Virus record (IMG/VR): IMGVR_UViG_3300025670_000002
Origin: a virus
Lineage: Duplodnaviria > Heunggongvirae > Uroviricota > Caudoviricetes
Strand: one strand, 5' to 3'
Length of the DNA: 64,000 bases
In this document: piece by piece, positions 15,209 through 43,090 of the stretch
Numbering within the stretch: the stretch's first letter is position 1
Layout: every line of letters starts with the position of its first letter
Translations under genes and position numbers: made by a program
The notes under the pieces: model-generated
Database searches by the model: none
The model's input: the letters and a program-made list of their open reading frames with translations, nothing else
Told to the model about the DNA's origin: nothing

Positions 15209-15790
15209 GTGAATCCAGGGTGTTACGGTAGTGTCGCTTGCCACAATGAAGACAGTGACGCCTGTGCTAATTGCAGCCTGCTTAGTGAGTGTCATGAAGT
15301 GGCGTATAAGTCACTTCTTGAACTAAGTTCGGTAATGGATGTTGAGCACATCTTGAGGCGCTATCAGCAAAGTAGAATTAGATCAGGTGGTGAAGCACCC
15401 AAGAATATGGCGAGCTCAGGTAAGCGAGTTGAGCTAACTTCATACCAAAGAAGCATAGTTGATAATGAAAATTTCCCAGTAAAGTCTAGGAAAATGGCTG
15501 GTGCAATTTTTGCAAAGGGGATGGATGGGGGGCTGATTAGAAAGATGATATTCAACAAGGTAAATCCGTTTAAAGATGCAACCCCAGCGATTATGGACAT
15601 TTGCTGTGACCTATTGATAGCCAGAAGGCTAACTGCGGTAAATATGAACAGAGGGATTATCGATAGAAGTCAGAGGTCACTAAGTTACAAAACGGTAAAG
15701 TCCCAAGCATCCGTTGCGATAACCACGCTAATGCTAATGGGGGTCGTTGAGAGGTCAGGGCTTGACTATATATTGAGGAGAAAAAAGTGA
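15209..15790 (+). CDS. hypothetical protein with an N-terminal Cys cluster
   Basis: 193-aa ORF. Contains CYGSVACHNEDSDACANCSLLSEC. Confidence 0.45.
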   Translation: MNPGCYGSVACHNEDSDACANCSLLSECHEVAYKSLLELSSVMDVEHILRRYQQSRIRSGGEAPKNMASSGKRVELTSYQRSIVDNENFPVKSRKMAGAIFAKGMDGGLIRKMIFNKVNPFKDATPAIMDICCDLLIARRLTAVNMNRGIIDRSQRSLSYKTVKSQASVAITTLMLMGVVERSGLDYILRRKK

Positions 15791-18168
15791 GTAGAGAAAT
15801 TACTGGTTATTTACTGGCAACGCGATCTCACTTTTCGCTTGGCGAGAGTATGTTGTCGCCAAAAGAAATTGTGAAGACTGCAAAGGACAGAGGGCATCAT
15901 ACAGTTGCTCTCACAGACACAATGACGGTATCGGGAATGATGGAGTTCTCAAGTGCCGCAAAAGAGCATGATATTAAGGCGATCATAGGTTGCCGACTTC
16001 GCATCGTTATGGACTTGGCTTACAGAAAGCCAAAGCGATCTGAAATTGCTATGCCAAAAGATAACCCAGAGTGGTATCCAAAGGTGTATGTGAAAAACAA
16101 ACAAGGCATGACTGATCTCTTAGGAATGCTGTCGGTAGCAAATGACGAAGACCACTTTTTTCACGTCGCAAGATTGAGTCTAAAGGACTTACTTGTGTGC
16201 CTAAAGAAAGGAAATTTGGCAGTATCGACAGGCGACATGAACGGATTGTTTCATGTAAGCTGCAATAAGTATAATTACAAGCGTATATGTGAGTTATTAA
16301 ACATGCACGCAAGCAAATCCAATGTGTTTTTAGAGCATTCTATTGTTAATACTATACTCAGTGACACACTAGCAAAAAAAGTCGCTAAGATCGCATTAGA
16401 GAGCGAGGCTCAGACAATAGCAACGTATCCCGTTCTTTATAAAAATGAAGAAGATGCGGACACACTAGATGTTTTGGCTACCATTGTTCAAAACAATAAA
16501 ATAACAGACCCCTGGCGACATATCCCATACATCAGAAATTTCAGCCTAAAGTTTCCTGAAAAATATGTAAAGGACATGATTGACGCAAGTGCTAGATTAA
16601 AAGCCGATGGCGTTAGTATTAGCATGAAGAGATCGCTTGCTGGTGCAAAAGCACTGTCCGATATGTGTGAGTATGTTTGGGAGGTTCAGGAAATTTCGCT
16701 ACCAAAGATTGTCGAAAATGAGCACAGAGCCTTGATGGCTGAGGTTGCTAAGGGGTGGAATAGAAGAATCAAGGTTGAAACTCTGGGATACAAGCCTGAT
16801 CCATCGCTAATTCCAGTATACAAAGAGCGTCTTGCCTATGAAATTGGCATTCTTAATAGAATGGGGTTCGAGCGTTATTTCCTAGTTGTTCAAGACTTGG
16901 TAATGTGGGCGAGAGATAGCAATATTTTTGTTGGGCCAGGAAGGGGGTCTGATGGGGGCAGCTTGGTTGCATACCTTATGGGAATAACAGATGTTGACCC
17001 AATTAGATTTAATCTGATTTTCGAGCGATTTATCAATCCAGATCGACTTGATTTGCCAGATGCAGATTTGGATTTTATGTCAACGAGACGACATGAGGTT
17101 ATTCAATATCTAATTGACAAATACGGGCAGGACTATGTTGCTGGAATTTCAAACTATTCAACACTTGCATCTGCATCCGCACTTAGGGATTGCGGAAGGG
17201 TATATGGCATGTCTGGATTTGATCTATCTGCAACAAAGCTAGTTCCAAAAGAAGGGGGTAAGTCAGCAACGCTAACAGAGGCGGCTGAATTAGTTCCAGA
17301 AATTCAAGAGTTTAGAGATGCAAATGTTGATGTGTGGCGACACGCAACGAAGCTTGAGGGCGTAATGCGTAACATGGGTAAACATGCTGCTGGAGTTGTT
17401 GTGGCAAGTGTTCCGATTACAAATAGAGCCGTCGTTGAGAAGCGTTCTGGGGCAATGGTTGCTAACTGGGACAAGAGAAGCATCGAAGATCAAGGCTTAG
17501 TTAAGATTGATATTTTGGGGCTATCAACGCTTGATGTATTGCAAATAGCTGTGGACTACATCGAACAAAGAACTGGTGAGTTTATCGAGCTTACAAAGTT
17601 GCCAATTGATGATTACGAAACGATGAAGAACTTTGGCATTGGAAATACCGTGTCTGTATTTCAGTTCACATCTGGCGGAATGAGGCATCTGTTGAAAGAG
17701 TTGGCAAGAGGTGGAATGCTGACGTTCGATGATGTATCTGCGGCAACAGCACTGTATAGACCTGGACCTATGGAATCGGGCCTAATGGATGACTATATTG
17801 CAATCAAGCAAGGCATTGCTGATCCAGAGTATGACCATTACTCAATGAAAGGGGCGCTTGAGGTAACGGGTGGTGTGATTATTTACCAAGAGCAAACTAT
17901 GCAGATTGTTAGGGATGTTGCTGGCTTTACGATGGTCGAAGCAGACCATGTTAGGAAGGCTATGGGAAAAAAAGACATGGAGAAAATGAAAGCCCTTAGA
18001 GATAGATTTGTTGAAGGCGCAATGGCGGGGTATGTTGAGATAGAGTTTGATGATGGCACTACTAGAAAAGTCCACAAGATGACTAAATTCTCTGTAAAAG
18101 GGCGTGATGAGAAGGTCACTGTGATGGATATTTTCAAACATGGTTATGAAATCTCAGAGAACATTTAA
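15787..18168 (+). CDS. dnaE: DNA polymerase III alpha (DnaE), N-terminal fragment (PHP plus palm); recognisable similarity stops at ..RDRFVEGAMAG (~nt 18024), followed by a 47-aa unrelated tail
   Basis: PHP motif HFSLGESMLSPKEIVKTAKDRGHHTVALTDTMTVSG. Palm region FERYFLVVQDLVMWAR, GPGRGS, ILGLSTLDV. Confidence 0.8.
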   Translation: MSREITGYLLATRSHFSLGESMLSPKEIVKTAKDRGHHTVALTDTMTVSGMMEFSSAAKEHDIKAIIGCRLRIVMDLAYRKPKRSEIAMPKDNPEWYPKVYVKNKQGMTDLLGMLSVANDEDHFFHVARLSLKDLLVCLKKGNLAVSTGDMNGLFHVSCNKYNYKRICELLNMHASKSNVFLEHSIVNTILSDTLAKKVAKIALESEAQTIATYPVLYKNEEDADTLDVLATIVQNNKITDPWRHIPYIRNFSLKFPEKYVKDMIDASARLKADGVSISMKRSLAGAKALSDMCEYVWEVQEISLPKIVENEHRALMAEVAKGWNRRIKVETLGYKPDPSLIPVYKERLAYEIGILNRMGFERYFLVVQDLVMWARDSNIFVGPGRGSDGGSLVAYLMGITDVDPIRFNLIFERFINPDRLDLPDADLDFMSTRRHEVIQYLIDKYGQDYVAGISNYSTLASASALRDCGRVYGMSGFDLSATKLVPKEGGKSATLTEAAELVPEIQEFRDANVDVWRHATKLEGVMRNMGKHAAGVVVASVPITNRAVVEKRSGAMVANWDKRSIEDQGLVKIDILGLSTLDVLQIAVDYIEQRTGEFIELTKLPIDDYETMKNFGIGNTVSVFQFTSGGMRHLLKELARGGMLTFDDVSAATALYRPGPMESGLMDDYIAIKQGIADPEYDHYSMKGALEVTGGVIIYQEQTMQIVRDVAGFTMVEADHVRKAMGKKDMEKMKALRDRFVEGAMAGYVEIEFDDGTTRKVHKMTKFSVKGRDEKVTVMDIFKHGYEISENI

Positions 18169-18214
18169 AGAGCCATCTTGTTAGCCAGCTCTCACGCGGT
18201 ATAATATTATTTTT

Positions 18215-18236
18215 AATAAGTAAGTAGTGACCTATT
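18215..18236 (+). promoter_or_regulatory. family A motif AATAAGTAAGTAGTGACCTATT directly upstream of the HNH endonuclease gene
   Basis: Core shared with the other family A copies. Lies inside the dnaE interruption. Confidence 0.4.
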
Positions 18237-18240
18237 AAAT

Positions 18241-18966
18241 ATGAGATACGAGATTGAACAGAGTTGGCTTGCTGATGAGTATGTCGGTAAATTAAGGAGT
18301 GTTGTTGATATTGCTAACGACATTGGATGCAGCACTCACAACATCAAAAAAAAGCTTAGTTACTGGGGGATAAAGAGGGGTAAAGCCGCCATTGTAAATA
18401 AGCCGTCTTGGAATAAAGGGTTAACAAGAGAGGCTGATGAAAGAGTTGAGAGGTATGCAAAGAGCAAGGATGGTTCTTTAAATCCAATGTTTGGTAAAAA
18501 AGCGTGGAATAAGGGCGTTGGTGTAGAGGATGAACGCGTGTTTAGAATGACCGCAGCGATGCGAAAGGGCTTTGACTCAGAAGAGACGAGGTTGAAGATG
18601 AGTGCCGCCAAGACGGGGTTGAGAGGTGAGGATACGAATAACTGGGGTGGGGGTGTATGGAAGCCAGGAGGTTCTGGTTACATTCAGATGACAAAGAATG
18701 GCGTCAGACACTATCTTCACAGATACGTTGCGGAGACGGCGATAGGTAGAAAGCTTTTGACGATTGAGGAAGTCCATCATGTAGATATGAATAGGGAAAA
18801 TAACGAACCTGAGAATCTACTTGTTATAAGAGCGAGAGATCACACAGCCCTGCATTCAGCAATGAGTCACGAACGTATTGAGAATCAAGTCGAATGGCTT
18901 GTTAATAATAACATTTGGCACTTGGAGATAGGAAAGATTGAAGATAAAAAACATAAAACAGCTTAG
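18241..18966 (+). mobile_element. free-standing HNH homing endonuclease gene inserted in dnaE
   Basis: Repeated WNKG motifs (NUMOD3-like). HNH box HHVDMNRENNEPENLLVIRARDHTALH. The gene sits between the two dnaE fragments. Confidence 0.75.
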
Positions 18967-20125
18967 AGATGGGATGAGCGAGAGCGGAGCATCTGAGTTG
19001 TTCGATAAGATTGAGAAATTCGCAGGATATTCCTTTAATAAAAGTCATGCAGTTGAGTATTCCGTAATTAGCTACTGGTGTATGTATTTAAAAACGCATT
19101 ACCCAGCGGAATATTTTGCCGCAACACTAACGGTTGTTGATAAGGACGAAACGCTAAAGGCGACGGTAAATGATGCTAAGAAGAGTGGAATAGTGATCGT
19201 CCCGCCAGACATTAATATCTCAACAGATAGATTTGAGATAAGACATGGGCTGCTTGATGATGAAATGTTTCTATACACGCCATTCAATAAGCTAAAGGGG
19301 TTAAGTGAAAAGACTGCTGCCGCGATAATTCTCGCAAGAGAGTCCAAGTCCGACAAGCTCTTTGAAAGTAAAGAGGACTTTCTAAGCACTGTCAATAAAA
19401 CAAAATGCAATAAGAGGCACCAGGCGGTTCTCGATTCAGTTGGTGCGTTCGCAAGTGTCGAGCCTGATTCAATCCCTGCAAGAAGTCAGGATAGAATCAA
19501 GGATCAAATTGAAATGATGCCTGGGTTGATTGTTGAGTATGTAAAGGCGGATAGACAAACAAAGCTAAATGACATTGCGCCTGAGCTAAATGCAAATGTT
19601 AAAAGATTTAGAGCCTGTTCAGAGTGCGACCTGAAAGATAAGCCGCACTGCATACCGTCAGCGGGAGGGAAAACATTGAAGTTCATGGTTGTCTCAGATA
19701 CCCCTTCTTGGTCAGAAGACAAAGAAGGTGTGATGATGGCTGGGATTAGCTCAAAACCGATTGAGTCAGCAATGAAGGAGGCTGGGGTAAGAAAGTCAAA
19801 CGGGTTCTTTACGTCACTTGTGAGAGCGCAGAAGTCAGACAAAAGACTTACAAATGAGCAGATCAATGGGTGCAAGGGCTTTCTCGATGAAGAGATTGCG
19901 GTAATGAGTCCGCCAGTGATTGTGTGTATGGGTGGGGCATCCATTAGACACTTTGTTCCTGATGTAAAAGGGGGCTGGAAGGACTTGTGTGGCCAAGTTG
20001 TCTACAACAAAGAATTGGATGCAAATATTGTATTCGGAATTAACCCATCAATGACGGCGTTTAGAGATGAGGCGCAAGAAATGATTGATGATGTTTTTAG
20101 AAAGGTTTATGAAATATTAAATTAG
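18938..20125 (+). CDS. dnaE: DnaE C-terminal fragment (fingers FNKSHAVEYS) fused to a family-4 UDG-like domain; the listed start is TTG 18938, and the likelier start is ATG 18974 just after the HNH stop
   Basis: SELFDKIEKFAGYSFNKSHAVEYSVISYWCMYLKTHYPAEYFAATLT matches the DnaE fingers region. The C-terminal ~200 aa carry FMVVSDTPSWSED...CMGGASIRHF...GINPS, which is UDG-superfamily-like. Confidence 0.7.
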   Translation: MKIKNIKQLRDGMSESGASELFDKIEKFAGYSFNKSHAVEYSVISYWCMYLKTHYPAEYFAATLTVVDKDETLKATVNDAKKSGIVIVPPDINISTDRFEIRHGLLDDEMFLYTPFNKLKGLSEKTAAAIILARESKSDKLFESKEDFLSTVNKTKCNKRHQAVLDSVGAFASVEPDSIPARSQDRIKDQIEMMPGLIVEYVKADRQTKLNDIAPELNANVKRFRACSECDLKDKPHCIPSAGGKTLKFMVVSDTPSWSEDKEGVMMAGISSKPIESAMKEAGVRKSNGFFTSLVRAQKSDKRLTNEQINGCKGFLDEEIAVMSPPVIVCMGGASIRHFVPDVKGGWKDLCGQVVYNKELDANIVFGINPSMTAFRDEAQEMIDDVFRKVYEILN

Positions 20126-20975: not shown

Positions 20976-21000
20976 TTATAAGTCATTAGTGACTTATAAT
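20976..21000 (+). promoter_or_regulatory. family A motif TTATAAGTCATTAGTGACTTATAAT (near-consensus copy, includes TATAAT)
   Basis: Perfect AAGTCA..TGACTT palindrome. Confidence 0.45.
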
Positions 21001-21058
21001 AGAGCTTGTTGAAAGACAAACTTTTAAAACTAATTAAACTAAAGAAACTGGAATAAAA

Positions 21059-22977: not shown

Positions 22978-25074
22978 ATGAGCGTCGCGGAAGATTTAGC
23001 AAAAGCACTAACAAAAGGTATCGGAGAGAACGATGAGAAGTCAGAAGTTACAGACTGGCTAAACACTGGCTTTCCGAACTTAAACATGGCTTTGTCGGGG
23101 AGACATAACGGCGGTCTTGGCTTCGGTCGTCTATATGAAATGTATGGGCCAAGTTCAAGCGGTAAGACAGCCATCGCAACTTACTTGATGATCGAGGCGC
23201 AGCGAAGAGGTGGTGTTGCCGTTTTTATTGATTACGAGCGATCATTTGACTTGGGAATGGCTGTAAACATGGGGCTAAAAGACGAATTTCCATTCTTTAT
23301 CTACAAGCAGCCCGAGACATGGGAAGAGGGGAACACTCAAGCAACAAGAGCGGCGCAGATCATTCGCGAGTCAAAGGCTATTCCTGAAAACGCACCTATT
23401 TTCATTGTTCAGGATTCAATTGCATCAGCAACACCTAAGTCAATGCTGTATGACAGCAAGGGAAAGAAGAAGGAAATGGATGAGCTAACGATGAATGATA
23501 CGACAGCGTTAAGCCGTGTCACCTCAACAACATTAAAAGTTGTCGCTCAGTTGGCAAATGAGCTAAATGCAACGGTTCTCTATCTCAACCAAATCAGAAC
23601 AAAGATCGGCGTTCTGCATGGTGACCCAACCTGTTTGAGAGGAGACACTGTCGTCCCCCTCACTAACGGAACGTCAATGAAAATCAAGGACATTGTTGAC
23701 AATAAAGTTGAAGCGGATGTGTGGTCATACAACGAAAGCTCTGGTGAATTTGAAGAGAGAAAGATTGTAAATTGGTTTGATAACGGCAAAATACCGGACG
23801 ATCAAGATTGGATTCATATAAAAACGTCAGGCGTTGAAACTAAAAATGGCGTTTGCGGCATGACTGTGACTCCAGATCATAAGGTTTTTATTGAAGACAA
23901 TGGGTGGTGCAGAGCAGATTCCGTCTCCGTGTCCGACATGTTGCTTACAAAAAGAACGACAAAAATTAGTGGAACACTTAGAGAGTTTATCTTTGGTGTA
24001 TTCGCTGGTGACTGCTCGTTGAGAAAAATGTCAGATAGAAGAACTACCGCCAATATGAAAATTCAGGATAACAATGACCCTGATTACGCAAGATGGAAGG
24101 TTGATAAATTAAGCCCGTTCTTTTCGTTCAAAAGGGGCAATGTCAAATGGAAAGGTGGTGAAGGCGTAAGATATGATTCCGAGTTTACATCTGAATTGGC
24201 AAGCTATGTTGACGTAAGCCGTGACCCACTGGAATTGATGTCTAAAAAGTCAGCGATGCAAATGGCAATTTGGATTATGGATGATGGCTACATGGACAAG
24301 AGCAGATGCAGATACACGGTATCAGTAAAAAGAAAGAAGAATGCAGACTATCTTGATAATCTGGCTGATATGTTTTTTGAGACGTGGGGTTTGACATCGA
24401 GGGTTAGAGAAAGAGAAGGCGCTTTGATCTTCAACGCAGACTCAAGTAGAAAGATTGCTGAAATGATTGCGCCATTTGTTCCTGAGTGTATGGAAAGGAA
24501 GTTGCCAGAAGAGCATAGAGGTAAGTATATTGAGTTTGATCTGACAAACGATGGCGATAAAATCAAGTCCGCATTCGTCCCTGTAACATCTGTGTCAATT
24601 AGGGATAGACAGGGGTATAGAGGTAGATATGATATTGAGGTCGAGAGCAATCACAATTATCTTGTCGGAAATAAAGATAACGGGGTTCTTGTTCATAATT
24701 GCACTCCAGGTGGCGGTGCTATGGAGTTTTATGCTTCTGGCAGAATTTCACTGGGGAGAACGAAGGTGATGGAGACGGTTAATGGCGATAAAGAAATGAC
24801 CGCTCAGATCATTAGAGCGAAGATAACCAAATCAAAGCACACTAGACCATTCAAGGTTGCAGAGTTGCGCATGGGCTTCAATGACGACGGCAGTGCGTAT
24901 TTTGAAGAAATATCAGTCATACTGGATTACTTAGTTAAGCTCGATATTATTGAAACTGCGGGTGCTTATGTCTTGTGGGATGGAAAGAAATATCACCGCA
25001 AGACACTTGCGAAGAAAATCATTGAAGATGGCGATGAAGATAAGTTGAGAAAAATGGTTCCCGACTATGTGTAG
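22978..25074 (+). CDS. RecA/UvsX-family recombinase interrupted by an intein
   Basis: RecA core GRLYEMYGPSSSGKTAIA and VAVFIDYERSFD. A 356-aa insert CLRGDTVV...VLVHN|C carries Hint blocks. Confidence 0.8.
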   Translation: MSVAEDLAKALTKGIGENDEKSEVTDWLNTGFPNLNMALSGRHNGGLGFGRLYEMYGPSSSGKTAIATYLMIEAQRRGGVAVFIDYERSFDLGMAVNMGLKDEFPFFIYKQPETWEEGNTQATRAAQIIRESKAIPENAPIFIVQDSIASATPKSMLYDSKGKKKEMDELTMNDTTALSRVTSTTLKVVAQLANELNATVLYLNQIRTKIGVLHGDPTCLRGDTVVPLTNGTSMKIKDIVDNKVEADVWSYNESSGEFEERKIVNWFDNGKIPDDQDWIHIKTSGVETKNGVCGMTVTPDHKVFIEDNGWCRADSVSVSDMLLTKRTTKISGTLREFIFGVFAGDCSLRKMSDRRTTANMKIQDNNDPDYARWKVDKLSPFFSFKRGNVKWKGGEGVRYDSEFTSELASYVDVSRDPLELMSKKSAMQMAIWIMDDGYMDKSRCRYTVSVKRKKNADYLDNLADMFFETWGLTSRVREREGALIFNADSSRKIAEMIAPFVPECMERKLPEEHRGKYIEFDLTNDGDKIKSAFVPVTSVSIRDRQGYRGRYDIEVESNHNYLVGNKDNGVLVHNCTPGGGAMEFYASGRISLGRTKVMETVNGDKEMTAQIIRAKITKSKHTRPFKVAELRMGFNDDGSAYFEEISVILDYLVKLDIIETAGAYVLWDGKKYHRKTLAKKIIEDGDEDKLRKMVPDYV
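23632..24699 (+). mobile_element. intein in the recombinase (Cys1 ... VHN, +1 Cys) with an endonuclease domain
   Basis: Block A CLRGDTVVPLTNG, block B VTPDHKVFI, C-terminal LVHN followed by C. Degenerate LAGLIDADG-like FIFGVFAGD and IWIMDDGYMD. Confidence 0.75.
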
Positions 25075-26388: not shown

Positions 26389-26419
26389 AATAGTAAGTCA
26401 TTAATGAGTTATAATAATG
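26389..26419 (+). promoter_or_regulatory. family A motif AATAGTAAGTCATTAATGAGTTATAATAATG (right arm degenerate)
   Basis: TAAGTCA half-site plus TATAAT. Confidence 0.35.
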
Positions 26420-31310: not shown

Positions 31311-34300
31311 TTGATGGCGATAGAAGTAGAAAAAAGAAATGGCAGAAGAGAGCTGCTGAATGTAGGTAAGATTCACAAAGCAGTCCAATGGGCCTGCGAT
31401 GGACTTGACGTATCTTTGTCTGAAATAGAGACGGGTGCGCACATTCAGTTCTTCAATGGAATTAAGACCAGCGACATTCAGAGCGCGTTGATAGGGTCTG
31501 CTGCGTCGTTAATTGATGTTGATACGCCAGACTACGAATACGCAGCGGCAAGATTGATGTTGTTGCAGATTTATAAAGAAGCTGGCATGGGGGAGGTGTC
31601 GTATCTAAGCTTGGATGACTACGTTGCGCACGGTATTGAGATTGGAAGACTGTCTCCTGAATTGGCAAAGTTTGACCTGGAAGAGCTGGATAAGGGTATT
31701 GATCCAGAAAGAGATATGCAGTTTAAGTATCTAGGCATGCAAACGGTGTATGACCGATATTTGATTCAAGAAAATCCAGAAGTAGGAAGTGATCGCGGCA
31801 GAGTTATTGAAATGCCTCAGCACATGTGGATGCGTATTGCGATGGGGCTGGCTTTAAACGAGTTGTCAGAAGAAAGAACATTTAGAGCTATTCAGTTCTA
31901 CGATATTTTGTCCAAATTTGAGTTTGTGAGCTCAACACCAACTCTGTTTAATTCTGGAACAACACATCCTCAAATGAGTTCGTGCTTTGTGAATACAGTG
32001 CAGGATGCTATTTGGGAAAGATCGCAAAACAACCCAATTGGCGATGGGATATTTGGAACAATCACCGAATGTGCTTTGTTGTCAAAGTTTGCTGGTGGTA
32101 TTGGGACTGATTGGACTAGGGTTAGACCAACTGGTTCGCACATTAAATCAACTAATGGAACGTCGTCCGGAATCGTTCCTTACCTAAAAGTGTTTAATGA
32201 CACTGCGGTTGCGGTTAATCAATCATTCACACCCGACACCATGTTGGTTACAAAGGATGGATTTAAGCGCATTGAGGATGTTGTGAGTGCCGATCTTTTG
32301 ATGAATGGGTCTGGTGACTTTAGAGAGATAGAGAAGATAAAGTCATACGATCAGCACGACCCCGTTGTGTCAGTCAAGTTTGCCAGAGGAATTGAACCAG
32401 TGGAGGTGACATCCGGTCACAGATTTCTCGTAGTTAGGGGGATACGACTCAGAGAGTCATTTAAGCGCGTAAATTGGAATGATAAAAAAACCGAGTGGGT
32501 TGAGGCAAAAGATCTGTTGGATACTGACATGCTTTGTGTTGCGCAGCCAAGTCCTAATTCGGCACATTTGATACATTCGGAAGATGATTGCAGAATGTAT
32601 GGCGTCATGATTGGGGACGGTCACGTAAAGAAGGATAGGTATGAGGCTGGTGTATCTCTGGGCATCGACGGGAAGAGCGATGTCATTTCATTTGTGAGGT
32701 CGTATCTAAAAAGCAAGTCGGTTCATAGCTGGGAGACTGTTGACGGAAAGTGTCAGTATATTTCTTGGAACTCAAGAGACCTGCCTGCATTCTCAAGAAA
32801 TTCTCTTTATGATAAACACGGCGAAAAGAGAATTTGTGGGGACATGTTGAATGTCCCACCAACTCACGCAATATTCATAATTCAAGGCATGTTGGAGACA
32901 GACGGCTATTACAAGAAGTCAGGTTCAATGAACTATGTAACAACGTCAAGAAACCTTGCGGAGTCATTTAGGTTTTTATGCACAAAGTTTGGCGTTTTGC
33001 CAACGGGATATAGAAGAAAAATTTCTGGCGGAACGTTTACAAAAAGATGTGGCGAGAAGGTGAAGAGGGAGAACTGTAAAGATATTTATGAGGTGTCGAC
33101 TCCGATATTCTCAGAGATTTCTGATATTTTCGACGTCCCAAAGACAACAACGTTTCAAGGGTGGTATAGGCTCGAATCGGGCGCTTTGCTGAATAGGGTG
33201 AGATCGGTTACGCCAATTGACTATAGTGGCTACGTGTATGACTTTGAGATGGATGGCCCACATAGCTACTCGATCAGTGAGGGAATCGTGCATAACGGTG
33301 GCAAAAGAAATGGTAGTTTCGCGGCATACCTAGAACCCTGGCATGGCGATATTGAAAGATTCTTGTCACTCAAGAAGCCAAATGGTGACGAGCGTTTGCG
33401 GGCAAGGGAAATATTTCCTGCACTCTGGACAAATGACTTATTCATGGAGCGAGTTCGTGACCAGAAGGATTGGTCACTGTTTGACTCGCATGAATATCCA
33501 GAACTACATCAGCTTCATGGTGATGACTTCAAAATTGCTTACGAGCAAGCAGAAGCCGATGGGGGTGCGATAAGAACTGTTAATGCAGAAGTTCTCTGGA
33601 GAAAGATTATCACGGCTCTAGTAGAGTCTGGTGCGCCCTGGATTACATTCAAAGACGAGTTCAATAGAAGAAATCCTCAAAAACACATTGGTTCTATTTT
33701 ATCGAGCAACTTATGCTGCATGACGGCAGACCAAAGAGTTGTTACTGATGCAGGAATTATGACGGTTGGTGAGCTATATGCCTCCGAACGTAGTAATAAA
33801 GTCGTTGGCTTGTCTGAATTTAGTGATGCCTCAAAGATGCTTCTGCCAAGACCCAATGCGCCAATTGTTCAGATCAACACCGCAGAGGGATATGAGCACA
33901 AAGTAACTCCAGACCATAGAGTTTGGGTAAGAGATAAGGGGTGGGTTGAGGCGCAAGATTTGGAGTCTGGCGACAAGTTGCTAACTCAACAAATTGAAGG
34001 AATGTTTGGTGAACAGCATTTTCCAAAGCTTGCTTTGATTGCAGGCTTGGTAGCTGGTGACGGGACGTTTAGCGAAAAGGCTGGTTCAACAATATCAGTT
34101 CATATTGATTTGTGGGGCGAGAAGACTGGTAAATTCGTTCCTGTTGTTGAAAAGGTTGTTGAGAGTTTGATATGTGGTGAGGTAGCGTCTACATCATCGG
34201 TTCATAAGCCGAAGTTTTCATTCAATCACGCCAAGAACTCATATAGACTTTGCAGTGCGCCATTGGCAAGAGTTCTTGATGAAATGGGGTTCAATAAGCA

Positions 34301-35846
34301 AACTAAGTTAGATGTGCCTGATTTTGTTTGGAAGGGAACAAGATCAACAGTTATGGGGTATCTTAGAGGCTTGTATCTGACAGATGGAAACATACAGGTT
34401 GGTAAAGATGCGACATGCATGGCGCTGTCATCATCAAGTAGAGATTTCCTAAGAGATATTCAGATACTTTGGGCTAACTTTGGGGTCAAGTCGTCAATGA
34501 ATAAGGTTCATAACGGCGGCATGCGTGACTTTGGCGATGGGTATGGCGAGTATGAGTGCAAGACTGTCTGGAGATTGTTAATAACCTCAATTCAGGGCTG
34601 TCAGATTGCAGAGCGTGTGACCATGTTGGGCAAGTATAGAACTGGAGACGGTGCGGATACATTTGTTAGTAACCTAAGTAAGAAAGGGTATAAGCAGAAG
34701 CTATATGCAACATTCACTGACTTAACTGAGTTGCCAAATGAAGATGCCTACTGCTTGACTGTTGACTCAGAAACTCACGCTTGGACTGTAAATGGGCTGA
34801 TAACTCATAATACCGAAATTGCCTTAAATACGAGTGACGATGAGACCGCCGTTTGCAATCTGGGCTCAATTAATATATCAGTCGTCAAGCCTCACATGTT
34901 TAGCCGAGTGATTCCAATCGCAATGCGTATGCTTGACAACGTAATTGATTTGAATTTCTATCCAACTGAAAAGGCTCGCGCTACAAATATGAAGCACCGA
35001 CCTGTTGGATTGGGCTTGATGGGGTGGGCTGATTACATTGTTGAAAAAGGTATTGATTGGGAATCAATTGCTCACCTAAAAGAAACTGATAATGTTTTTG
35101 AGCAATTTTCTTACTGGGCAATTAGCGGCTCTGTTGATTTGGCACAAGAGCGCGGTGCTTATGAGTCATTCAAAGGCTCAAACTGGGACGAAGGCATTTT
35201 TCCAATTGACACCGCAAGGGAGCTACCGAGTGAATGGAGTGCCGATTCAAGCGAAAGAGTTATTACTCAATGGGATACGTTGAGAGCTCGCCTTGAAGAG
35301 CACGGCATTAGAAACTCCAACTGCACATCGTTAGCACCAACCGCAACTATTTCAAATCTTGTTGGAACTGAGCCTTGTATCGAGCCCCCTTTCAAGCAGG
35401 TCTCAATAAAAGAGAACAAGTCTGGCAAGTTTAAAGTTGTCGCACCTTCCCTACGTCACGGCAGACCTGAATTGGTAAAAGTTGCATTCAATATTGACCA
35501 GAAGTGGATCATTAGACCAGCCGCAGTTCGTCAAAAGTGGCTGTGTCAGTCGCAATCCGTGAACCTGTTTAAGAAGCTTGGTGTAAAGGGTAGCGTAATT
35601 AGCTCATGGTATTTCTTAGCATGGGAGTTAGGTCTTAAATCTACATACTACCTAAAGCAACAGATTAATGAGCTAACTGATGAAGAGGCTGGGACTTCGT
35701 TAGTCAAGCAGGCTCTTGAAAGGCTTGAGAAGCCTGTTGACCCTGTTGGTCCCGTTGAGGTTGATGGTGAGAAGAGTCTCGATGATATGGTTGATGGTGT
35801 AAAGGTTTGCAGTATCAGCAACCCAGAATGCGAGAGCTGTCAATAA
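31311..35846 (+). CDS. nrdA: class I ribonucleotide reductase alpha subunit (NrdA-like) with ATP cone and two inteins
   Basis: ATP cone VEKRNGRRELLNVGKIHKAV. PTLFNSGT...SSCFV. NQ|[intein]|GGKRNGSFAAYLEPWH. SNLC|[intein]|TEIALNTSDDETAVCNLGSINI. C-terminal CxxC tail. Confidence 0.9.
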   Translation: MMAIEVEKRNGRRELLNVGKIHKAVQWACDGLDVSLSEIETGAHIQFFNGIKTSDIQSALIGSAASLIDVDTPDYEYAAARLMLLQIYKEAGMGEVSYLSLDDYVAHGIEIGRLSPELAKFDLEELDKGIDPERDMQFKYLGMQTVYDRYLIQENPEVGSDRGRVIEMPQHMWMRIAMGLALNELSEERTFRAIQFYDILSKFEFVSSTPTLFNSGTTHPQMSSCFVNTVQDAIWERSQNNPIGDGIFGTITECALLSKFAGGIGTDWTRVRPTGSHIKSTNGTSSGIVPYLKVFNDTAVAVNQSFTPDTMLVTKDGFKRIEDVVSADLLMNGSGDFREIEKIKSYDQHDPVVSVKFARGIEPVEVTSGHRFLVVRGIRLRESFKRVNWNDKKTEWVEAKDLLDTDMLCVAQPSPNSAHLIHSEDDCRMYGVMIGDGHVKKDRYEAGVSLGIDGKSDVISFVRSYLKSKSVHSWETVDGKCQYISWNSRDLPAFSRNSLYDKHGEKRICGDMLNVPPTHAIFIIQGMLETDGYYKKSGSMNYVTTSRNLAESFRFLCTKFGVLPTGYRRKISGGTFTKRCGEKVKRENCKDIYEVSTPIFSEISDIFDVPKTTTFQGWYRLESGALLNRVRSVTPIDYSGYVYDFEMDGPHSYSISEGIVHNGGKRNGSFAAYLEPWHGDIERFLSLKKPNGDERLRAREIFPALWTNDLFMERVRDQKDWSLFDSHEYPELHQLHGDDFKIAYEQAEADGGAIRTVNAEVLWRKIITALVESGAPWITFKDEFNRRNPQKHIGSILSSNLCCMTADQRVVTDAGIMTVGELYASERSNKVVGLSEFSDASKMLLPRPNAPIVQINTAEGYEHKVTPDHRVWVRDKGWVEAQDLESGDKLLTQQIEGMFGEQHFPKLALIAGLVAGDGTFSEKAGSTISVHIDLWGEKTGKFVPVVEKVVESLICGEVASTSSVHKPKFSFNHAKNSYRLCSAPLARVLDEMGFNKQTKLDVPDFVWKGTRSTVMGYLRGLYLTDGNIQVGKDATCMALSSSSRDFLRDIQILWANFGVKSSMNKVHNGGMRDFGDGYGEYECKTVWRLLITSIQGCQIAERVTMLGKYRTGDGADTFVSNLSKKGYKQKLYATFTDLTELPNEDAYCLTVDSETHAWTVNGLITHNTEIALNTSDDETAVCNLGSINISVVKPHMFSRVIPIAMRMLDNVIDLNFYPTEKARATNMKHRPVGLGLMGWADYIVEKGIDWESIAHLKETDNVFEQFSYWAISGSVDLAQERGAYESFKGSNWDEGIFPIDTARELPSEWSADSSERVITQWDTLRARLEEHGIRNSNCTSLAPTATISNLVGTEPCIEPPFKQVSIKENKSGKFKVVAPSLRHGRPELVKVAFNIDQKWIIRPAAVRQKWLCQSQSVNLFKKLGVKGSVISSWYFLAWELGLKSTYYLKQQINELTDEEAGTSLVKQALERLEKPVDPVGPVEVDGEKSLDDMVDGVKVCSISNPECESCQ
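32223..33296 (+). mobile_element. RNR intein 1 (Ser1 ... IVHN, +1 Gly), LAGLIDADG type
   Basis: Block A SFTPDTMLVTKDG, block B TSGHRFLV, motifs VMIGDGHV and IIQGMLETDGYY, ends GIVHN. The residue after the insert is G. Confidence 0.65.
33717..34811 (+). mobile_element. RNR intein 2 (Cys1 ... ITHN, +1 Thr), LAGLIDADG type
   Basis: CMTADQRVVTDAG, VTPDHRVWV, LIAGLVAGDGTF, YLRGLYLTDGNI, ends LITHN followed by T. Confidence 0.8.
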
Positions 35847-35894: not shown

Positions 35895-35949
35895 TAATAA
35901 TAAGTCATTAGTGAGTTATAATAAGACTCATTAGTGACTTACTTAGAGG
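35895..35949 (+). promoter_or_regulatory. two tandem family A motifs (AATAATAAGTCATTAGTGAGTTATAAT / ATAAGACTCATTAGTGACTTACTTAGAGG)
   Basis: Duplicated palindromic element seen directly. Confidence 0.45.
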
Positions 35950-38275: not shown

Positions 38276-38510
38276 TACGTTGTCGGTAGAGCCATTAACA
38301 GCGATTGAAAAGGTTGGGATATTTAGGGTTATTGCCGTCGCAATGTTGACGGCATTTAATGTTATATCGGTAGGCTTTGTTATGCCGTTTATGATTAGCT
38401 CCGATTCGTCAGAGCTTGTGATGCTAGGTTTTGCTTTGGCGTTAATGACGCTGGCTGTCAATTGGTTTTGTATTTACATGTTTATTAGAGGTAAAAAGAA
38501 TAATGTTTAG
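38259..38510 (+). CDS. small membrane protein (two TM segments), possible NfeD-like partner of the SPFH protein
   Basis: Hydrophobic stretches FRVIAVAMLTAFNVISVGFVMPF and LGFALALMTLAVNWFCIYMFI. Overlaps the SPFH gene start. Confidence 0.4.
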   Translation: MKKVFDTLSVEPLTAIEKVGIFRVIAVAMLTAFNVISVGFVMPFMISSDSSELVMLGFALALMTLAVNWFCIYMFIRGKKNNV

Positions 38511-39360
38511 AATTTTTGGTATTGTTGCGCTGGTTTTATCAATGATTGGTGTTTCTAGCTGTGAAAAAGTCCCCGCTGGTCACGTTGGGGTAAAGGTGTT
38601 TCTTTTGGGTGGAAGCAAAGGTGTTGACTCAGAAGAGCTGGGTGTCGGTAGATACTTTATTGGTCTCAATGAGGAGCTATTCTTGTTCCCAACCTTCACT
38701 CAGAACTATGTGTGGACTGCTGGAAAGGATGAGGGCTCACCAAACAACGAGTCAATTACGTTTCAGACGAATCAGGGTTTGGCAATCAACACGGATGTCG
38801 GTGTTTCGTATGAGGTAAATAAGGAAAAGGTAACAAGTGTCTTTCAGAAGTATCGAAAGGGGGTTGATGAAATTACCGATGTTTATCTGAGAAATATGGT
38901 GCGTGATGCGTTTGTATCCGAAGGGTCAAAGCACGATGTTGAGTATATTTATGGAAAAGGTAAAACCGATTTCATGAAGGCGGTGCAGGCAAGTGTTATA
39001 TCTCAAGTCAGAGAGATCGGCATTGATGTTGAGAAGATTTATCTAATTGGCAGAATGAGATTACCTGATTCAGTTGTTAGAGCAATTGATGCAAAGATTG
39101 GCGCAACTCAGAAGGCTCAACAGCGTGAAAACGAAGTTCGAGAGGCAGAAGCATCAGCCGCGAAGAAAGTTGCACTAGCGAACGGTGAGGCGGATTCAAT
39201 TCTGGCAGTTGCAAGAGCGCAGGCTGAGGCAAATAGTTTACTGAGCGGGTCGCTTACCAAAAACTTGCTTGAAAACAAAGCAATTGAAAAGTGGGACGGA
39301 AAGCTACCGTATATGAACGGCAGTAGCGGTGTTCCGATGATTAAGTTACCTAATATGTAG
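38503..39360 (+). CDS. SPFH/band-7 (stomatin/prohibitin/HflC-like) membrane protein
   Basis: N-terminal TM/signal anchor. SPFH core. C-terminal coiled coil AKIGATQKAQQRENEVREAEASAAKKVALANGEADSILAVARAQAEA. Confidence 0.65.
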   Translation: MFRIFGIVALVLSMIGVSSCEKVPAGHVGVKVFLLGGSKGVDSEELGVGRYFIGLNEELFLFPTFTQNYVWTAGKDEGSPNNESITFQTNQGLAINTDVGVSYEVNKEKVTSVFQKYRKGVDEITDVYLRNMVRDAFVSEGSKHDVEYIYGKGKTDFMKAVQASVISQVREIGIDVEKIYLIGRMRLPDSVVRAIDAKIGATQKAQQRENEVREAEASAAKKVALANGEADSILAVARAQAEANSLLSGSLTKNLLENKAIEKWDGKLPYMNGSSGVPMIKLPNM

Positions 39361-39386
39361 CATAGATTGTTTGTTGCTGGTGATTG

Positions 39387-39417
39387 TAATAAGTCACTAG
39401 CAACTTACACAGCCCAG
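39387..39417 (+). promoter_or_regulatory. family A motif (degenerate) TAATAAGTCACTAGCAACTTACACAGCCCAG
   Basis: TAAGTCA half-site plus trailing CCCAG. Confidence 0.3.
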
Positions 39418-39612
39418 AGAATAACTGTAATAATAAGCACTCTTGAAAGAAAGAGTTTTTATTATTACAAAAGGAGACGATAGTGAGAGCAACGCTTAGT
39501 GATTTATTGGAACAGCTTGAGAACTCAACCAATCCCGTTACGGACTGGGTTTTGAAAGAGTGCATCATGGCAAGATTGATGATTAAAGATTTTAGTTAAA
39601 AGAGGGAAGCCT

Positions 39613-39795
39613 ATGTTAGATGTTAGCAAAGTGCCGTCGATGATGGCGATAGCTGCGAGTTTCACTGGCGGTGGTATTCAGAAGCCAGTAATGCCGAAGT
39701 CGGATTGGAAACATGATGACAAAAGAGTTGCCAAAGCTCAGGCAAAAAGAGAGCGCAGAATGAAACGTAATTTAAAAAATAAAGGTGGTAGATAA
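39613..39795 (+). CDS. small basic protein
   Basis: 60-aa ORF with RBS AGAGGGAAGCCTATG and a Lys/Arg-rich tail. Confidence 0.35.
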   Translation: MLDVSKVPSMMAIAASFTGGGIQKPVMPKSDWKHDDKRVAKAQAKRERRMKRNLKNKGGR

Positions 39796-39796
39796 T

Positions 39797-40750
39797 ATGC
39801 AGCAGTATAAAGAATTATTGCAGGACATTCTTGAGAATGGCGACAGCTCGGATGATAGAACTGGAGTTGGAACAACATCGGTGTTCGGCAGACAAATTAG
39901 GTTCAACTTGAAGGATGGCTTTCCCCTACTTACAGCAAAGCACACATCATTCAAGATGATTGCAACAGAGCTTTTGTGGATGCTTTCAGGCGACACAAAC
40001 GTAAAGGCTCTTAACGATCAAGGCAATAAGATTTGGAATGAGTGGGCGACAGAAAGTGGTGAGCTTGGCCCTGTTTATGGCAAACAGTGGCGTGCTTGGC
40101 ATAACGACCGCGACGGTTGCGAAGTTGACCAGATTGCAAATGTAATTGAGTCGCTAAAAAGTAATCCAAAATCAAGAAGACATATTGTGTCAGCTTGGAA
40201 TGTGAATTACCTTCCAGATGAGAGGACTTCGCCAAGTATGAGTGCATATATTGGGTTCATGGCTTTGCCGCCATGCCACCTATTGTTTCAATTCAATGCG
40301 AGAAAGCTAAGTGCCTCCGAAAGAAGAAAGCTTATTCCAAAGGGGACAGTATTTTCTCAAAGCATTGTAACGGACAAAGAGTGGCACAGGGCTCTTGATT
40401 TAAATGGCATTCCTTCATACGAACTTAGCTGCCAGTTGTATCAACGTAGTGCAGATATGTTCTTAGGTGTTCCGTATAACATTGCTTCATACGCATTGCT
40501 TACGCACATGGTAGCCCAGCTAACAAACATGACCGTTGGTGATTTCGTTCATACATTTGGCGATGCTCATATTTACAATTCACATTTAGAGAAGGTCGAA
40601 GAGTTATTGAGTAGGGATTTTGATAAATATGATTTACCTAAGCTAAATATAGTTGGGAAGCATGACGGCATTGATGACTTTACCTTAGATAGTTTTGAGG
40701 TTGTGAGTTACCAGTCTCAACCATCTATCAAAGCCCCAATAGCTGTATGA
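39797..40750 (+). CDS. thyA: thymidylate synthase ThyA (start moved to ATG 39797 after AAAGGTGG; the listed ORF begins at GTG 39785)
   Basis: MQQYKELLQDILENG..DRTGVGT..FNLKDGFPLLTAKH..ELLWMLSGDTN..GPVYGKQWRAW..LPPCH..LSCQLYQRSADMFLGVPYNIASYALL. A ~40-aa internal insertion is present. Confidence 0.9.
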   Translation: MQQYKELLQDILENGDSSDDRTGVGTTSVFGRQIRFNLKDGFPLLTAKHTSFKMIATELLWMLSGDTNVKALNDQGNKIWNEWATESGELGPVYGKQWRAWHNDRDGCEVDQIANVIESLKSNPKSRRHIVSAWNVNYLPDERTSPSMSAYIGFMALPPCHLLFQFNARKLSASERRKLIPKGTVFSQSIVTDKEWHRALDLNGIPSYELSCQLYQRSADMFLGVPYNIASYALLTHMVAQLTNMTVGDFVHTFGDAHIYNSHLEKVEELLSRDFDKYDLPKLNIVGKHDGIDDFTLDSFEVVSYQSQPSIKAPIAV

Positions 40751-41286
40751 TTGAGTGGCGAGAGGTTGGTGGCTATGACGGTGCGTATTTGGTATCCAAT
40801 CGTGGTGATGTAAAAAGTGTTGCAAGAGTGGCAAGGAGAGCTGTTAATGGTGTAGAGATAGTTAGACCCATCAGGGAGAGGCTGTTAAAAGCTCGGAGAA
40901 ATGGCGGAGGGTATCCAATAGTTACAATGTATAAAATAGGTGTGCCGAGAACCATCGTTGTTCATTCGATAGTTGCCAGTGCGTTTCTAGGAGAAAGACC
41001 GCCTGGCATGTTCATCTGTCATAACGATAGTAATGTTGAAAACACAAATGACTGGAATTTGAGATACGATACGCCAAAGGGAAATATGGGGGACAGAGTT
41101 TCAAATGGAACGTCACCAGTTGGTGAAAAAAACGGAAATTCTAGGTTGAATGGGTCTGATGTTTTAAAAATAAGAGACCTCATATCGGATGGCATGTCGA
41201 ACATTGACATTTCAAACAAAATGGGTGTCTCTAAGTCAACGGTGTCGCACATAAAGACGGGAAGAACTTGGGGGCATGTAGTTTGA
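40747..41286 (+). mobile_element. HNH homing endonuclease (I-HmuI-like: N-terminal EWREV..GY.G.Y.VSN.G.V.S, HNH box, C-terminal HTH) directly after thyA
   Basis: HNH box CHNDSNVENTNDWNLRYDTPKGN. C-terminal DISNKMGVSKSTVSHIKTG helix-turn-helix. Confidence 0.75.
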
Positions 41287-41332
41287 TCTTAATGCCCACG
41301 AACAACCCACAATTTTGAGTATAAAATGCTCA

Positions 41333-41413
41333 ATTGATAATTTCAAGTTAGAAGATTTTGAAGTTATCGGATACGAATCACAGCCTTCGATAAAGGCTGA
41401 AATAGCAGTTTAG
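41333..41413 (+). pseudogene. thyA: duplicated 3'-terminal remnant of thyA (IDNFKLEDFEVIGYESQPSIKAEIAV*) downstream of the HNH gene
   Basis: It parallels the true ThyA C-terminus GIDDFTLDSFEVVSYQSQPSIKAPIAV*. The frame is open only from 41282. Confidence 0.7.
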
Positions 41414-41681
41414 GTTAGGAGAGGGCATGAGTGAGGATGGGAAAAAAGGTTTTATCAGGTTGATAAATGGGGTTTGGCATACTCGCGTTCGCATTGAGGA
41501 TAGTTTCTCGGTGATGCGATATAGCGAGGTTGAGTCAAGAGGGCTTTTGAATGAATGATCGCTCAAATGAAATAACATACGAATATTTTTGTGTTTTGGG
41601 TGAGCCATCAAACGGCAAATGCAGTAAGAGGATGCGCCAAAACGGATCGCATACTTACTTCACATATCATCTGATGCGGTA

Positions 41682-41966
41682 ATGGCTGGTTTACCCAATG
41701 TCAAAAAGCCATGCTCCAACTGCCCTTTTAGAAAAGACTCACAAAAGGGGTGGCTCGGTGCAGAGAGAATGCGGGAAATATTAAGTTACACCTCTTTTGT
41801 TTGTCATAAGAAGACCACTCTACAGTGCGCTGGTCACATGCTGATAAAAGGGGATGAGAACGCATTTGTTCAGATTGCAGAGAGACTTGGTGTTGATCCA
41901 AATCTATCAGGTAGTGATTTGGTATTTGAAACAGAGGAAGATTGTATAAACCATCATGGGGGATAA
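41682..41966 (+). CDS. hypothetical Cys-rich protein (CSNCPFR..C..CAGH)
   Basis: 94-aa ORF. No recognisable family. Confidence 0.4.
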   Translation: MAGLPNVKKPCSNCPFRKDSQKGWLGAERMREILSYTSFVCHKKTTLQCAGHMLIKGDENAFVQIAERLGVDPNLSGSDLVFETEEDCINHHGG

Positions 41967-41991
41967 ATGATTAATTGGAAGAGATTGAGCA

Positions 41992-42408
41992 TTGCGTTTG
42001 GGGCTTGTGTTGCTGTTTTGGCAGCAGCGGTGTTACTTGCGGGTGGAAAATGACTATATTAAGACCGACGATAGATCGGTGGAAATAAGAAATGAAACAA
42101 AAACAAGAATGAAAATGGGCAAATTGGCAAGTCAATTCATTAATAAAAGACTGACCTTCGTTTATAAAAACTGGCGAGGGGAAACTGGAAAAAGAACTGT
42201 TGTGCCAATTAGCATTCGATTTGGCGAAAGCAAGTTTCACAAAGGCGAGCAGTGGATTATGAGAGCTTTTGATGTGGAGAGAAAGGGTGACCCAGTGAGA
42301 GAGTTTGCAATGAAAGACATACAAGGCATTAAAAGATGCCATGACTGTTTGCCAAAAACGAAAAACCCATGTCTTGATATTGAAGTTGATGAGATTTCGG
42401 GTGATTGA
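41992..42408 (+). CDS. hypothetical protein
   Basis: 138-aa ORF. No motif recognised. Confidence 0.4.
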   Translation: MRLGLVLLFWQQRCYLRVENDYIKTDDRSVEIRNETKTRMKMGKLASQFINKRLTFVYKNWRGETGKRTVVPISIRFGESKFHKGEQWIMRAFDVERKGDPVREFAMKDIQGIKRCHDCLPKTKNPCLDIEVDEISGD

Positions 42409-42629
42409 TGAGTAGAGTGAAATTTGAAGAGGATATGGAGAGGTTCATATCAGGCAAGATCAACAAGATGATGGGTGAGATTGAAGGTGAGTATCCAGAT
42501 TGCTTTACGGAAATGAGAATTACCGATGATGACTGGTTGGGTGTGAAAAGAAAAACACTTAGCAAGGCGAGAGTTGATTTCAAAAACACAATAAAGGCGG
42601 CAATTAGATGGAGCGAGTGGATTAAATGA
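42405..42629 (+). CDS. hypothetical protein
   Basis: 74-aa ORF coupled to its neighbours (ATGA overlaps on both sides). Confidence 0.4.
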   Translation: MMSRVKFEEDMERFISGKINKMMGEIEGEYPDCFTEMRITDDDWLGVKRKTLSKARVDFKNTIKAAIRWSEWIK

Positions 42630-43090
42630 TTACCATGATGATGGCAGTGTCCCAAAACGGGGTCATAGGCTGCGATACAGGTATGCCCTGGCATGTATCA
42701 AGCGAGTTGAAGTTCTTCAAGGCACAGACAATGGGAAAGCGCATTGTGATGGGCAGAAAGACTGCTGAATTGGTTGGCTGCTTGCCAGGAAGAGAGTGCA
42801 TTGTTGTCTCTCGAAATAGAGGCTTCGTTGTTGAGGGCTTCGAGGTAAGAACTGCATACGAGGTTATTAAGCAGGATGAGGCCATTCTGGATATGGACAC
42901 TGTAATATGTGGCGGCGGTGAAATATACGATCTATTTATGCCGTATGTGGATGAGATTCTTGTGTCCAGACTCGCTGTTACTGCGGAGGGAAATGTGCTT
43001 ATGCCTGGTATTGACTTAAGCGTGTGGAAAATTGGCGGATATGAAAATCACCCTGAGTTTACGGTTGAGAAATATGTTAGGGTAGATTAA
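42626..43090 (+). CDS. folA: dihydrofolate reductase
   Basis: MITMMMAVSQNGVIGCDTGMPWHVSSELKFFKAQTMGKRIVMGRKT aligns with the FolA N-terminus. GGGEIY is present. Confidence 0.85.
   Translation: MITMMMAVSQNGVIGCDTGMPWHVSSELKFFKAQTMGKRIVMGRKTAELVGCLPGRECIVVSRNRGFVVEGFEVRTAYEVIKQDEAILDMDTVICGGGEIYDLFMPYVDEILVSRLAVTAEGNVLMPGIDLSVWKIGGYENHPEFTVEKYVRVD

Follow-up and report, generated by a model that had tools for sequence, protein, structure and literature searches.

The HNH proteins I-HmuI and I-HmuII of the Bacillus phages SPO1 and SP82 are intron-encoded nicking endonucleases, and I-BmoI, which is encoded in the thyA intron of Bacillus mojavensis, is a homing endonuclease that targets the thymidylate synthase gene. 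I-TevI from the td intron of T4 likewise targets the gene for thymidylate synthase (PMC2988022). T4 also has stand-alone nuclease genes of the Seg and Mob type that move by intronless homing and adjoin conserved genes of nucleotide metabolism; their cut site is presumed to be distant, inside the neighboring gene, and the flank is obligatorily co-converted, with marker exclusion (PMC2988022). In fungal mitochondria, mobile open reading frames (ORFs) have given rise to hybrid genes, as in atp6 of Allomyces macrogynus and in atp6, atp9, cox2, and nad3 of Glomus (PMC3630166). The two copies of the gene end in these hybrids are 64-81% identical in DNA, while protein identity is much higher (PMC3630166). 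Here, we present an analysis of a thyA locus in a 64,000-nucleotide stretch of DNA (the window) from a Caudoviricetes virus (IMG/VR record IMGVR_UViG_3300025670_000002). Based on the sequence and the list of ORFs, a complete thyA, an HNH gene, and an orphan thyA 3' end follow one another on the plus strand at positions 39797-41413. This locus is a phage, HNH, and thyA example of the footprint known from fungal mitochondria, and the best explanation for it is that the mobile unit comprises the nuclease gene together with the last roughly 130-165 nt of thyA and not the nuclease gene alone.

As in the fungal hybrids, the C-terminal part of the gene is present twice, with an in-frame inserted copy that completes the gene, an endonuclease ORF, and a presumably native C-terminus that has been displaced. 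In contrast to the window, the fungal nucleases are of the LAGLIDADG or GIY-YIG type and the genomes are mitochondrial. Moreover, the nuclease ORF of the window has its own start, which overlaps the thyA stop codon. In the fungal hybrids, the downstream copy was shown to be native by comparison with close relatives and by reverse transcription PCR, whereas in the window we infer this. The locus resembles the T4 Seg and Mob systems in that a stand-alone nuclease gene adjoins a conserved gene of nucleotide metabolism and in the presumed distant cut site within the neighboring gene; however, the HNH genes of T4 (Mob) have a different domain makeup. Finally, I-TevI and I-BmoI differ from the window nuclease in being intron-encoded GIY-YIG enzymes that target a more central, active-site-coding part of the gene, and no gene-end duplication is known to accompany them. 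The features of the locus are as follows.

39797..40750, plus strand: thyA, complete gene for a thymidylate synthase of 317 aa (Pfam PF00303, profile positions 1-266 of 266, E 8e-106)
40616..40750, plus strand: in-gene copy of the duplicated thyA 3' end, last 44 codons and TGA (aligns with 41282-41413)
40747..40750, plus strand: ATGA overlap, in which the HNH start is built from the last Val codon (GTA) and the TGA stop of thyA (read from the sequence)
40747..41286, plus strand: free-standing gene for a predicted I-HmuI-like HNH homing endonuclease of 179 aa with NUMOD4, HNH, and C-terminal helix-turn-helix (Pfam, PHROG, phmmer)
41282..41413, plus strand: orphan 5'-truncated thyA 3' end, 43 codons and TAG (Pfam PF00303 positions 232-266, E 3e-5)
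41417..41429, plus strand: AGGAGAGGG, Shine-Dalgarno sequence and ATG of the next ORF, 13 nt past the orphan stop codon

An AGGTGG sequence is located 8 nt upstream of the thyA ATG. The translation of thyA contains the catalytic PPCH and RSADMFLGVPYNIASY motifs and has the C-terminus GIDDFTLDSFEVVSYQSQPSIKAPIAV, with the last stretch SYQSQPSIKAPIAV followed by TGA. The HNH gene is a separate ORF that starts on the thyA stop codon, outside any intron or intein, and Pfam detected no intein domains in ThyA or the HNH protein. Because the two genes overlap by 4 nt (ATGA within GTATGA), translation of the HNH gene is probably coupled to that of thyA. The HNH protein matches NUMOD4 with 40.7 bits (E 3e-10; Pfam cut-off 23.4) and the HNH endonuclease families of PHROG (E 1e-34), while residues 133-174 give weak matches, below the Pfam cut-offs, to HTH_38, GerE, and HTH_3. 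The closest solved relative is I-HmuI (PDB 1U3E; phmmer E 7e-12), with which it shares the order of an N-terminal NUMOD4-type region, HNH, and a C-terminal helix-turn-helix as well as the equivalents of His75, Asn87, and Asn96. Based on these similarities, the gene product is predicted to be an I-HmuI-like homing endonuclease, to which we ascribe a putative nuclease activity and a putative cut site. It differs from I-HmuI, which is encoded inside a group I intron in a DNA polymerase gene, in being free-standing behind thyA and in having Cys in place of Asp74. A scan for promoters and terminators gave nothing above background, and GC and GC3 contents did not discriminate between the segments.

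The first-pass annotation of this DNA had described a second, divergent thyA C-terminus behind the HNH gene with the rest of the gene absent, and Pfam, a six-frame profile scan, and tblastn all recovered it. Specifically, the ThyA profile had only two significant matches over the six frames of the 64-kb window, i.e., thyA itself (E 1e-134) and the orphan (E 5e-7), and the thyA end matched the DNA behind the HNH gene in tblastn with E 1e-10. The orphan alone matches the last 35 positions of the ThyA profile. While the existence of the duplicate was thus borne out, its start at 41333 was not: the similarity between the two ends is clear for 26 codons, and a weaker similarity reaches further, to about 43 codons, i.e., from 41282. 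The orphan frame opens at 41282, where it overlaps the HNH stop codon (41284-41286), ends with the TAG at 41411-41413, and encodes FDLNAHEQPTILSIKCSIDNFKLEDFEVIGYESQPSIKAEIAV. It lacks an in-frame ATG or GTG start; there is one in-frame TTG at 41315, which is not preceded by a Shine-Dalgarno sequence. An apparent continuation of the orphan within the final codons of the HNH gene ("EEL") was judged to be due to chance.

The same architecture is present in L007, a Logan contig from an unrelated assembly, which also encodes the closest homologue of the HNH protein (41% identity). In L007, the HNH gene lies behind a thyA encoding 339 aa and ahead of an orphan thyA 3' end, which encodes LTRDYRSLPRLVINPDKTDIFSFTPDDFVLTGYDPRPVTKYPVAT and matches the in-gene end with E 3e-16. 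Thus, both the window and L007 fit the layout of the fungal hybrids, in which the gene end is present twice around a nuclease ORF and the proximal copy is in frame and complete. In an alignment of ThyA proteins, the L007 orphan starts within a few columns of the window orphan; in both, the R-(E/D)-P..LP.L segment follows directly after this start, which is about 44-45 codons away from the end. For L007, we also considered a longer orphan that would contain an internal deletion and judged this similarity to be due to chance. The window is a metagenomic contig, and the locus could in principle have been created during assembly by the merging of HNH-plus and HNH-minus strain variants. However, a Joint Genome Institute (JGI) metagenome contig (sample 3300008227) that was assembled independently contains the locus within a stretch of 16,966 bp at 100% identity, and an artefact is therefore unlikely. 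Likewise, the HNH protein cluster is on record from four contigs, L007 has the same architecture, and the two copies of the thyA end are only 67% identical, so that an assembler would not collapse or chain them. Altogether, we give an assembly artefact next to no chance.

The first-pass annotation had proposed aligning the two ends at the nucleotide level. In this alignment, 67% of the bases and 18 of the 26 residues are the same over the last 26 codons, and the longest exact run common to both ends is at most 8 nt. The differences by codon position 1/2/3 are 6/3/17 over these 26 codons. Third positions are close to saturated (0.65 differ), while positions 1 and 2 together differ at 9/52 (0.17). 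The two ends of L007 differ at 14/11/31 positions over 45 codons, of which 25/90 (0.28) are at positions 1 and 2. At identical residues, the codons differ in 11 of 18 cases in the window and in 17 of 27 in L007, which in both genomes approximates a random choice of synonymous codons. Based on these codon counts, we dropped the idea of recoding beyond saturation (Nei-Gojobori pS 0.90-0.93). Because the differences are concentrated at third codon positions, the two ends diverged mostly as parts of working thyA genes in different genomes and under purifying selection, and not by decay after a local duplication. Accordingly, a local tandem duplication of the thyA end, e.g., as a long target-site duplication, followed by neutral decay of the orphan is very unlikely. 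From a Jukes-Cantor estimate, a neutrally evolving orphan is expected to differ at ~0.3-0.5 of positions 1 and 2 when the third-position value is 0.65, compared with the observed 0.17 in the window and 0.28 in L007; moreover, the 43-45 orphan codons contain no frameshift or stop in either genome. What a tandem duplication would account for is the lower fit of the orphan to ThyA. Using a ThyA profile built without these sequences, the in-gene end scored 36.4 bits and the orphan 26.0 bits, and the orphan also scored below the in-gene end in L007. In addition, the window orphan has Glu four residues from its end, where 110 of 119 ThyA homologues have Pro. The lower score and the Glu are also compatible with some relaxation after displacement of an end that had diverged elsewhere.

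According to a further explanation, the HNH gene is part of a group I intron whose splicing joins thyA to its true 3' exon at 41282-41413. The first-pass annotation had itself named the possibility that 41333-41413 is such a 3' exon as the observation that would speak against its proposal. Introns have precedents here: I-HmuI is itself intron-encoded, and thyA/td genes with group I introns are known from T4 and Bacillus phages. Among the relatives of the L007 ThyA (P0177, P0178, P0181, P0187, and others), we also noticed many fragments of 230-240 aa (71% query coverage) that stop at ...LNINIR, just before the R-S-x-D active-site segment; these resemble the first exons, or halves, of thyA genes that a different element has split and hint at a split thyA elsewhere. 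However, Rfam gave no match to a group I or group II intron at E≤1 within 38500-43000 or in four sister loci, and no intron RNA reached the gathering score over the whole window. Moreover, the orphan abuts the HNH stop codon, so that the 3' part of an intron core could not be accommodated between them. Finally, the in-gene thyA is complete to the last profile position and has its own stop, from which the HNH start is built, and needs no further exon. We conclude that splicing of the orphan to thyA is highly improbable.

No close relatives of the window were found. In megablast and blastn searches against 50,697 phage records, nothing exceeded about 79% identity over short pieces of thyA; IMG/VR contained ThyA relatives of 35% identity only; and exact look-ups of the window ThyA and HNH proteins gave no match, save via a GTG-start variant (P0121). 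The nearest ThyA (P0002) is encoded on contig L005, where the gene order of the window (thyA, small ORF, DUF6283-like gene) is retained except for the HNH gene, which is absent. HNH homologues at the thyA stop codon were found in L007, in the cultured Acinetobacter phages vB_AbaM_P1 and D22 of the genus Saclayvirus (41% identity to the window protein), and in L187 and L188, which were identified by scanning bacterial and archaeal genome contigs for this HNH family. With the window, these represent five lineages, in which the thyA-linked nucleases are 37-45% identical and the ThyA proteins 30-46%. In a neighbor-joining tree of 45 family members, the five thyA-linked HNH genes and one Vibrio phage gene group together. 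None of 160 further loci of the HNH family from IMG/VR and metagenomes adjoins thyA; an alignment of eight of the HNH proteins was too divergent for a search at the level of loci. In Vibrio phage V6Aob (L011), a homologue with 39% identity to the window HNH protein lies between endolysin and DprA-like genes, and thyA is located about 2.3 kb downstream and does not adjoin it.

The junction between thyA and the nuclease gene is identical in the window, L187, and L188, where the final Val codon and the stop codon of thyA (GTATGA) provide the nuclease ATG. It is TAGTG in P1, while in L007 the HNH gene starts either 5 nt past the thyA stop or 37 nt inside thyA. In both P1 (L009, 2468-2504) and L007 (3791-3827), an ATG of the HNH ORF is located exactly 37 nt inside thyA, and this ATG spans the (E/Q)-Cys codons at positions -12/-11. 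Cys at -11 is present in three of the five HNH-linked thyA ends (L007, P1, and L187) and in 12 of 119 ThyA homologues, a comparison that was made post hoc.

The presence of the HNH gene is polymorphic among Saclayvirus genomes (loci L009 and L012-L015 were compared). In P1 and D22, the variable slot after thyA is occupied by the HNH gene; HB01, phi1_092033, and Liucustia have an unrelated ORF of 109 codons in this place, and TAC1 has no gene there. In phi1_092033, thyA is annotated as two pieces. A comparison of P1 (HNH-plus) with HB01 (HNH-minus) shows the same thyA sequence as far as the GDIHVY codons, i.e., over ~160 aligned nt left of the breakpoint, and a downstream flank that is 100% identical over 1647 bp from the next gene. 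In between, the last 165 nt of thyA are sharply divergent and, together with the HNH gene, differ as one block. Thus, Saclayvirus demonstrates a block exchange that comprised the thyA 3' end plus the HNH gene, with the left crossover inside thyA. This exchange is homologous recombination on both sides, and no orphan remains.

Together, the anatomy of the locus and the four related loci support the proposal of the first-pass annotation that a homing endonuclease gene was copied together with flanking thyA sequence, giving an unspliced duplicate of the 3' end. We think it probable that a free-standing homing endonuclease carries along a thyA 3' end to replace that of the recipient and that one-sided repair left the recipient's own end behind. 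According to this model, the nuclease would cut an HNH-free thyA roughly 130-165 nt ahead of the stop codon, and the left end of the break would recombine inside thyA with an HNH-carrying donor that has a divergent thyA. Repair synthesis would then copy the donor thyA 3' end, which presumably is immune to cleavage, and the HNH gene. On the right side, where homology is lacking, illegitimate joining at or near the break would follow, and the last 43 codons of the recipient thyA would stay behind the HNH gene as the orphan, as in the window and L007. A donor with downstream homology would instead bring about a clean replacement, as in Saclayvirus. Experiments with T4 have demonstrated that homing can be one-sided, with illegitimate joints formed at microhomologies (PMC2988022). 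In this model, thyA stays intact because the cassette supplies its own 3' end, and the in-gene copy probably escapes cleavage. The two ends have no common exact run of more than 8 nt, and recombination between repeats therefore cannot remove the nuclease gene. During later rounds of homing into sibling phages, the orphan and the right flank may provide perfect homology at the break.

In the window, we have moderate confidence that the orphan is the native, displaced end and that the in-gene copy was imported with the nuclease, based on analogy and the junction signature. First, the block exchanged in Saclayvirus contains the thyA end upstream of the HNH gene. Second, the in-gene copy ends in GCT GTA TGA, the junction also present in L187 and L188, while the orphan ends in GTT TAG and lacks this signature. 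Third, the spacing between the orphan stop and the next gene resembles that in the HNH-free relative L005, in which the gap between the thyA stop and the next gene is 10 nt. In L007, the motif CRCATATCACY is located 19 nt past the orphan stop, and in the HNH-free L184, it is located 47 nt past the intact thyA. It occurs once per locus compared with an expected 0.02-0.03 per locus, for a pattern derived post hoc from the alignment, and its placement suggests a native context behind the L007 orphan. Alternatively, the polarity may be reversed or blurred: the in-gene end would be the native one, and the HNH gene would have brought the orphan along from a donor in which the order thyA-HNH-orphan was already established, or repeated homing shuffled the ends. 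This merely shifts the origin of the architecture to an earlier donor and leaves the signature of the in-gene end, the Saclayvirus block, and the shared rare motif behind the L007 orphan and the intact thyA of L184 to be explained; we consider it rather unlikely.

Several observations weigh against, or are neutral toward, an imported in-gene end and an active, thyA-directed nuclease, and the first two also fit the reversed polarity. The two ends of the window are about equally distant from the nearest ThyA (16 and 17 of 26 residues identical to that of L005), and the 119 nearest ThyA C-termini were uninformative as to which copy is native (mean identities of 14.2 and 13.5 of 26). In L007, it is the in-gene end that agrees with HNH-free relatives: L183 and L184, with ThyA identities of 74% and 63%, are closer to the in-gene end (32-35/45) than to the orphan (24-25/45). 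To accommodate this likeness, our model needs a long conversion tract covering most of thyA, later rounds of homing, or decay of the orphan. Moreover, the grouping of the thyA-linked HNH genes has bootstrap values of only 14-39%, and the best ThyA among 5.8 billion proteins, beyond the window's own contigs, is only 55% identical. With respect to activity, the HNH protein matches Pfam HNH_3 with 20.8 bits, under the cut-off of 24.8, and the metal-binding Asp74 of I-HmuI is replaced by Cys in the window protein as well as in the aligned thyA-linked and closest homologues.

To look for this footprint at other genes, we compared the DNA on the two sides of the nuclease gene with each other in 159 loci of the HNH family. 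Matches at E≤1e-8 were obtained in four of them (the window, L007, L138, and L175), and two more were plausible (L165 and L058); among mismatched control pairs, there was none at E≤1e-5. The four additional loci are as follows.

L138, 1744-2948: 3' end of the upstream gene repeated around the HNH-family gene
L175, 2273-3542: lysozyme-like gene, 5' end of the downstream gene duplicated
L165, about 150-1150: SleB-like hydrolase gene, 5' end of the downstream gene duplicated
L058, 2318-3850: dam-like methylase gene, 5' end of the downstream gene duplicated

L175, L165, and L058 are mirror images of the window locus: the nuclease gene is preceded by a truncated 5' end and followed by the full gene, whose 5' end is divergent. 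More tentatively, we speculate that this HNH lineage is specialized on the thyA 3' end, that a cleavage-immune 3' end and the nuclease form an end-replacement cassette, that the orphan marks the cut site and acts as the right homology arm, and that the same trick operates in both polarities at other genes. We regard this extended reading as plausible but as falling somewhat short of probable. If it is true, such elements would invade coding sequence without an intron or intein, the orphan would be more than debris, and the cut site would be equivalent in two unrelated phages.

The window genome is unusually loaded with selfish elements. Inteins with LAGLIDADG domains are present in three replication genes, i.e., in those for a PhoH-like helicase, a RecA/UvsX-like recombinase, and the large subunit of ribonucleotide reductase (RNR), at 1730-3526, 22978-25074, and 31311-35846. 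In the RNR large subunit, Intein_splicing and LAGLIDADG_3 match in two stretches each, possibly reflecting two inteins. A DNA polymerase III alpha (DnaE-type) gene at 15787-20125 appears to be split by a second HNH gene, and no flanking duplication was found at this locus. It has the following parts.

15787-18168: N-terminal part of DnaE
18241-18966: HNH_3/NUMOD3 ORF
18938-20125: 395-aa ORF with the DnaE HHH_6 region at its start and a fused uracil-DNA-glycosylase domain

Separately, a 23-nt promoter-like repeat, AAGTCATTARTGAGTTATAATAA, which contains TATAAT, is present on the plus strand at 20980-21002, 26395-26417, and 35902-35924; no copies are expected by chance. Two copies are located about 40-60 nt ahead of ORF starts (21059 and 26457), the third is in the gap after the RNR large-subunit gene, and none is near thyA or the HNH gene.

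Neither a review of homing in T4 (PMC2988022) nor a survey of ICP1 (PMC10448857) mentions a leftover duplicate of the end of the target gene, and we found no phage paper describing such a gene-end duplication, in a literature of which our coverage was incomplete and thus is not proof of absence. Our findings leave the general picture of homing unchanged; elements of this type, the family of the enzyme, and the pathways of repair were known before. For thyA-directed homing, the Acinetobacter phages P1 or D22 versus HB01 provide a cultured pair for experiments. If our model is correct, phage homing endonucleases can gain entry into the coding region of an essential gene by supplying a new end for it, a route so far documented mainly in fungal mitochondria. 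Moreover, the start of an orphan would suggest the position of the break and, thus, offer a computational handle on cut sites, and the same process would account for some mosaic ends of genes and some of the short gene pieces that lack annotation in phage genomes.

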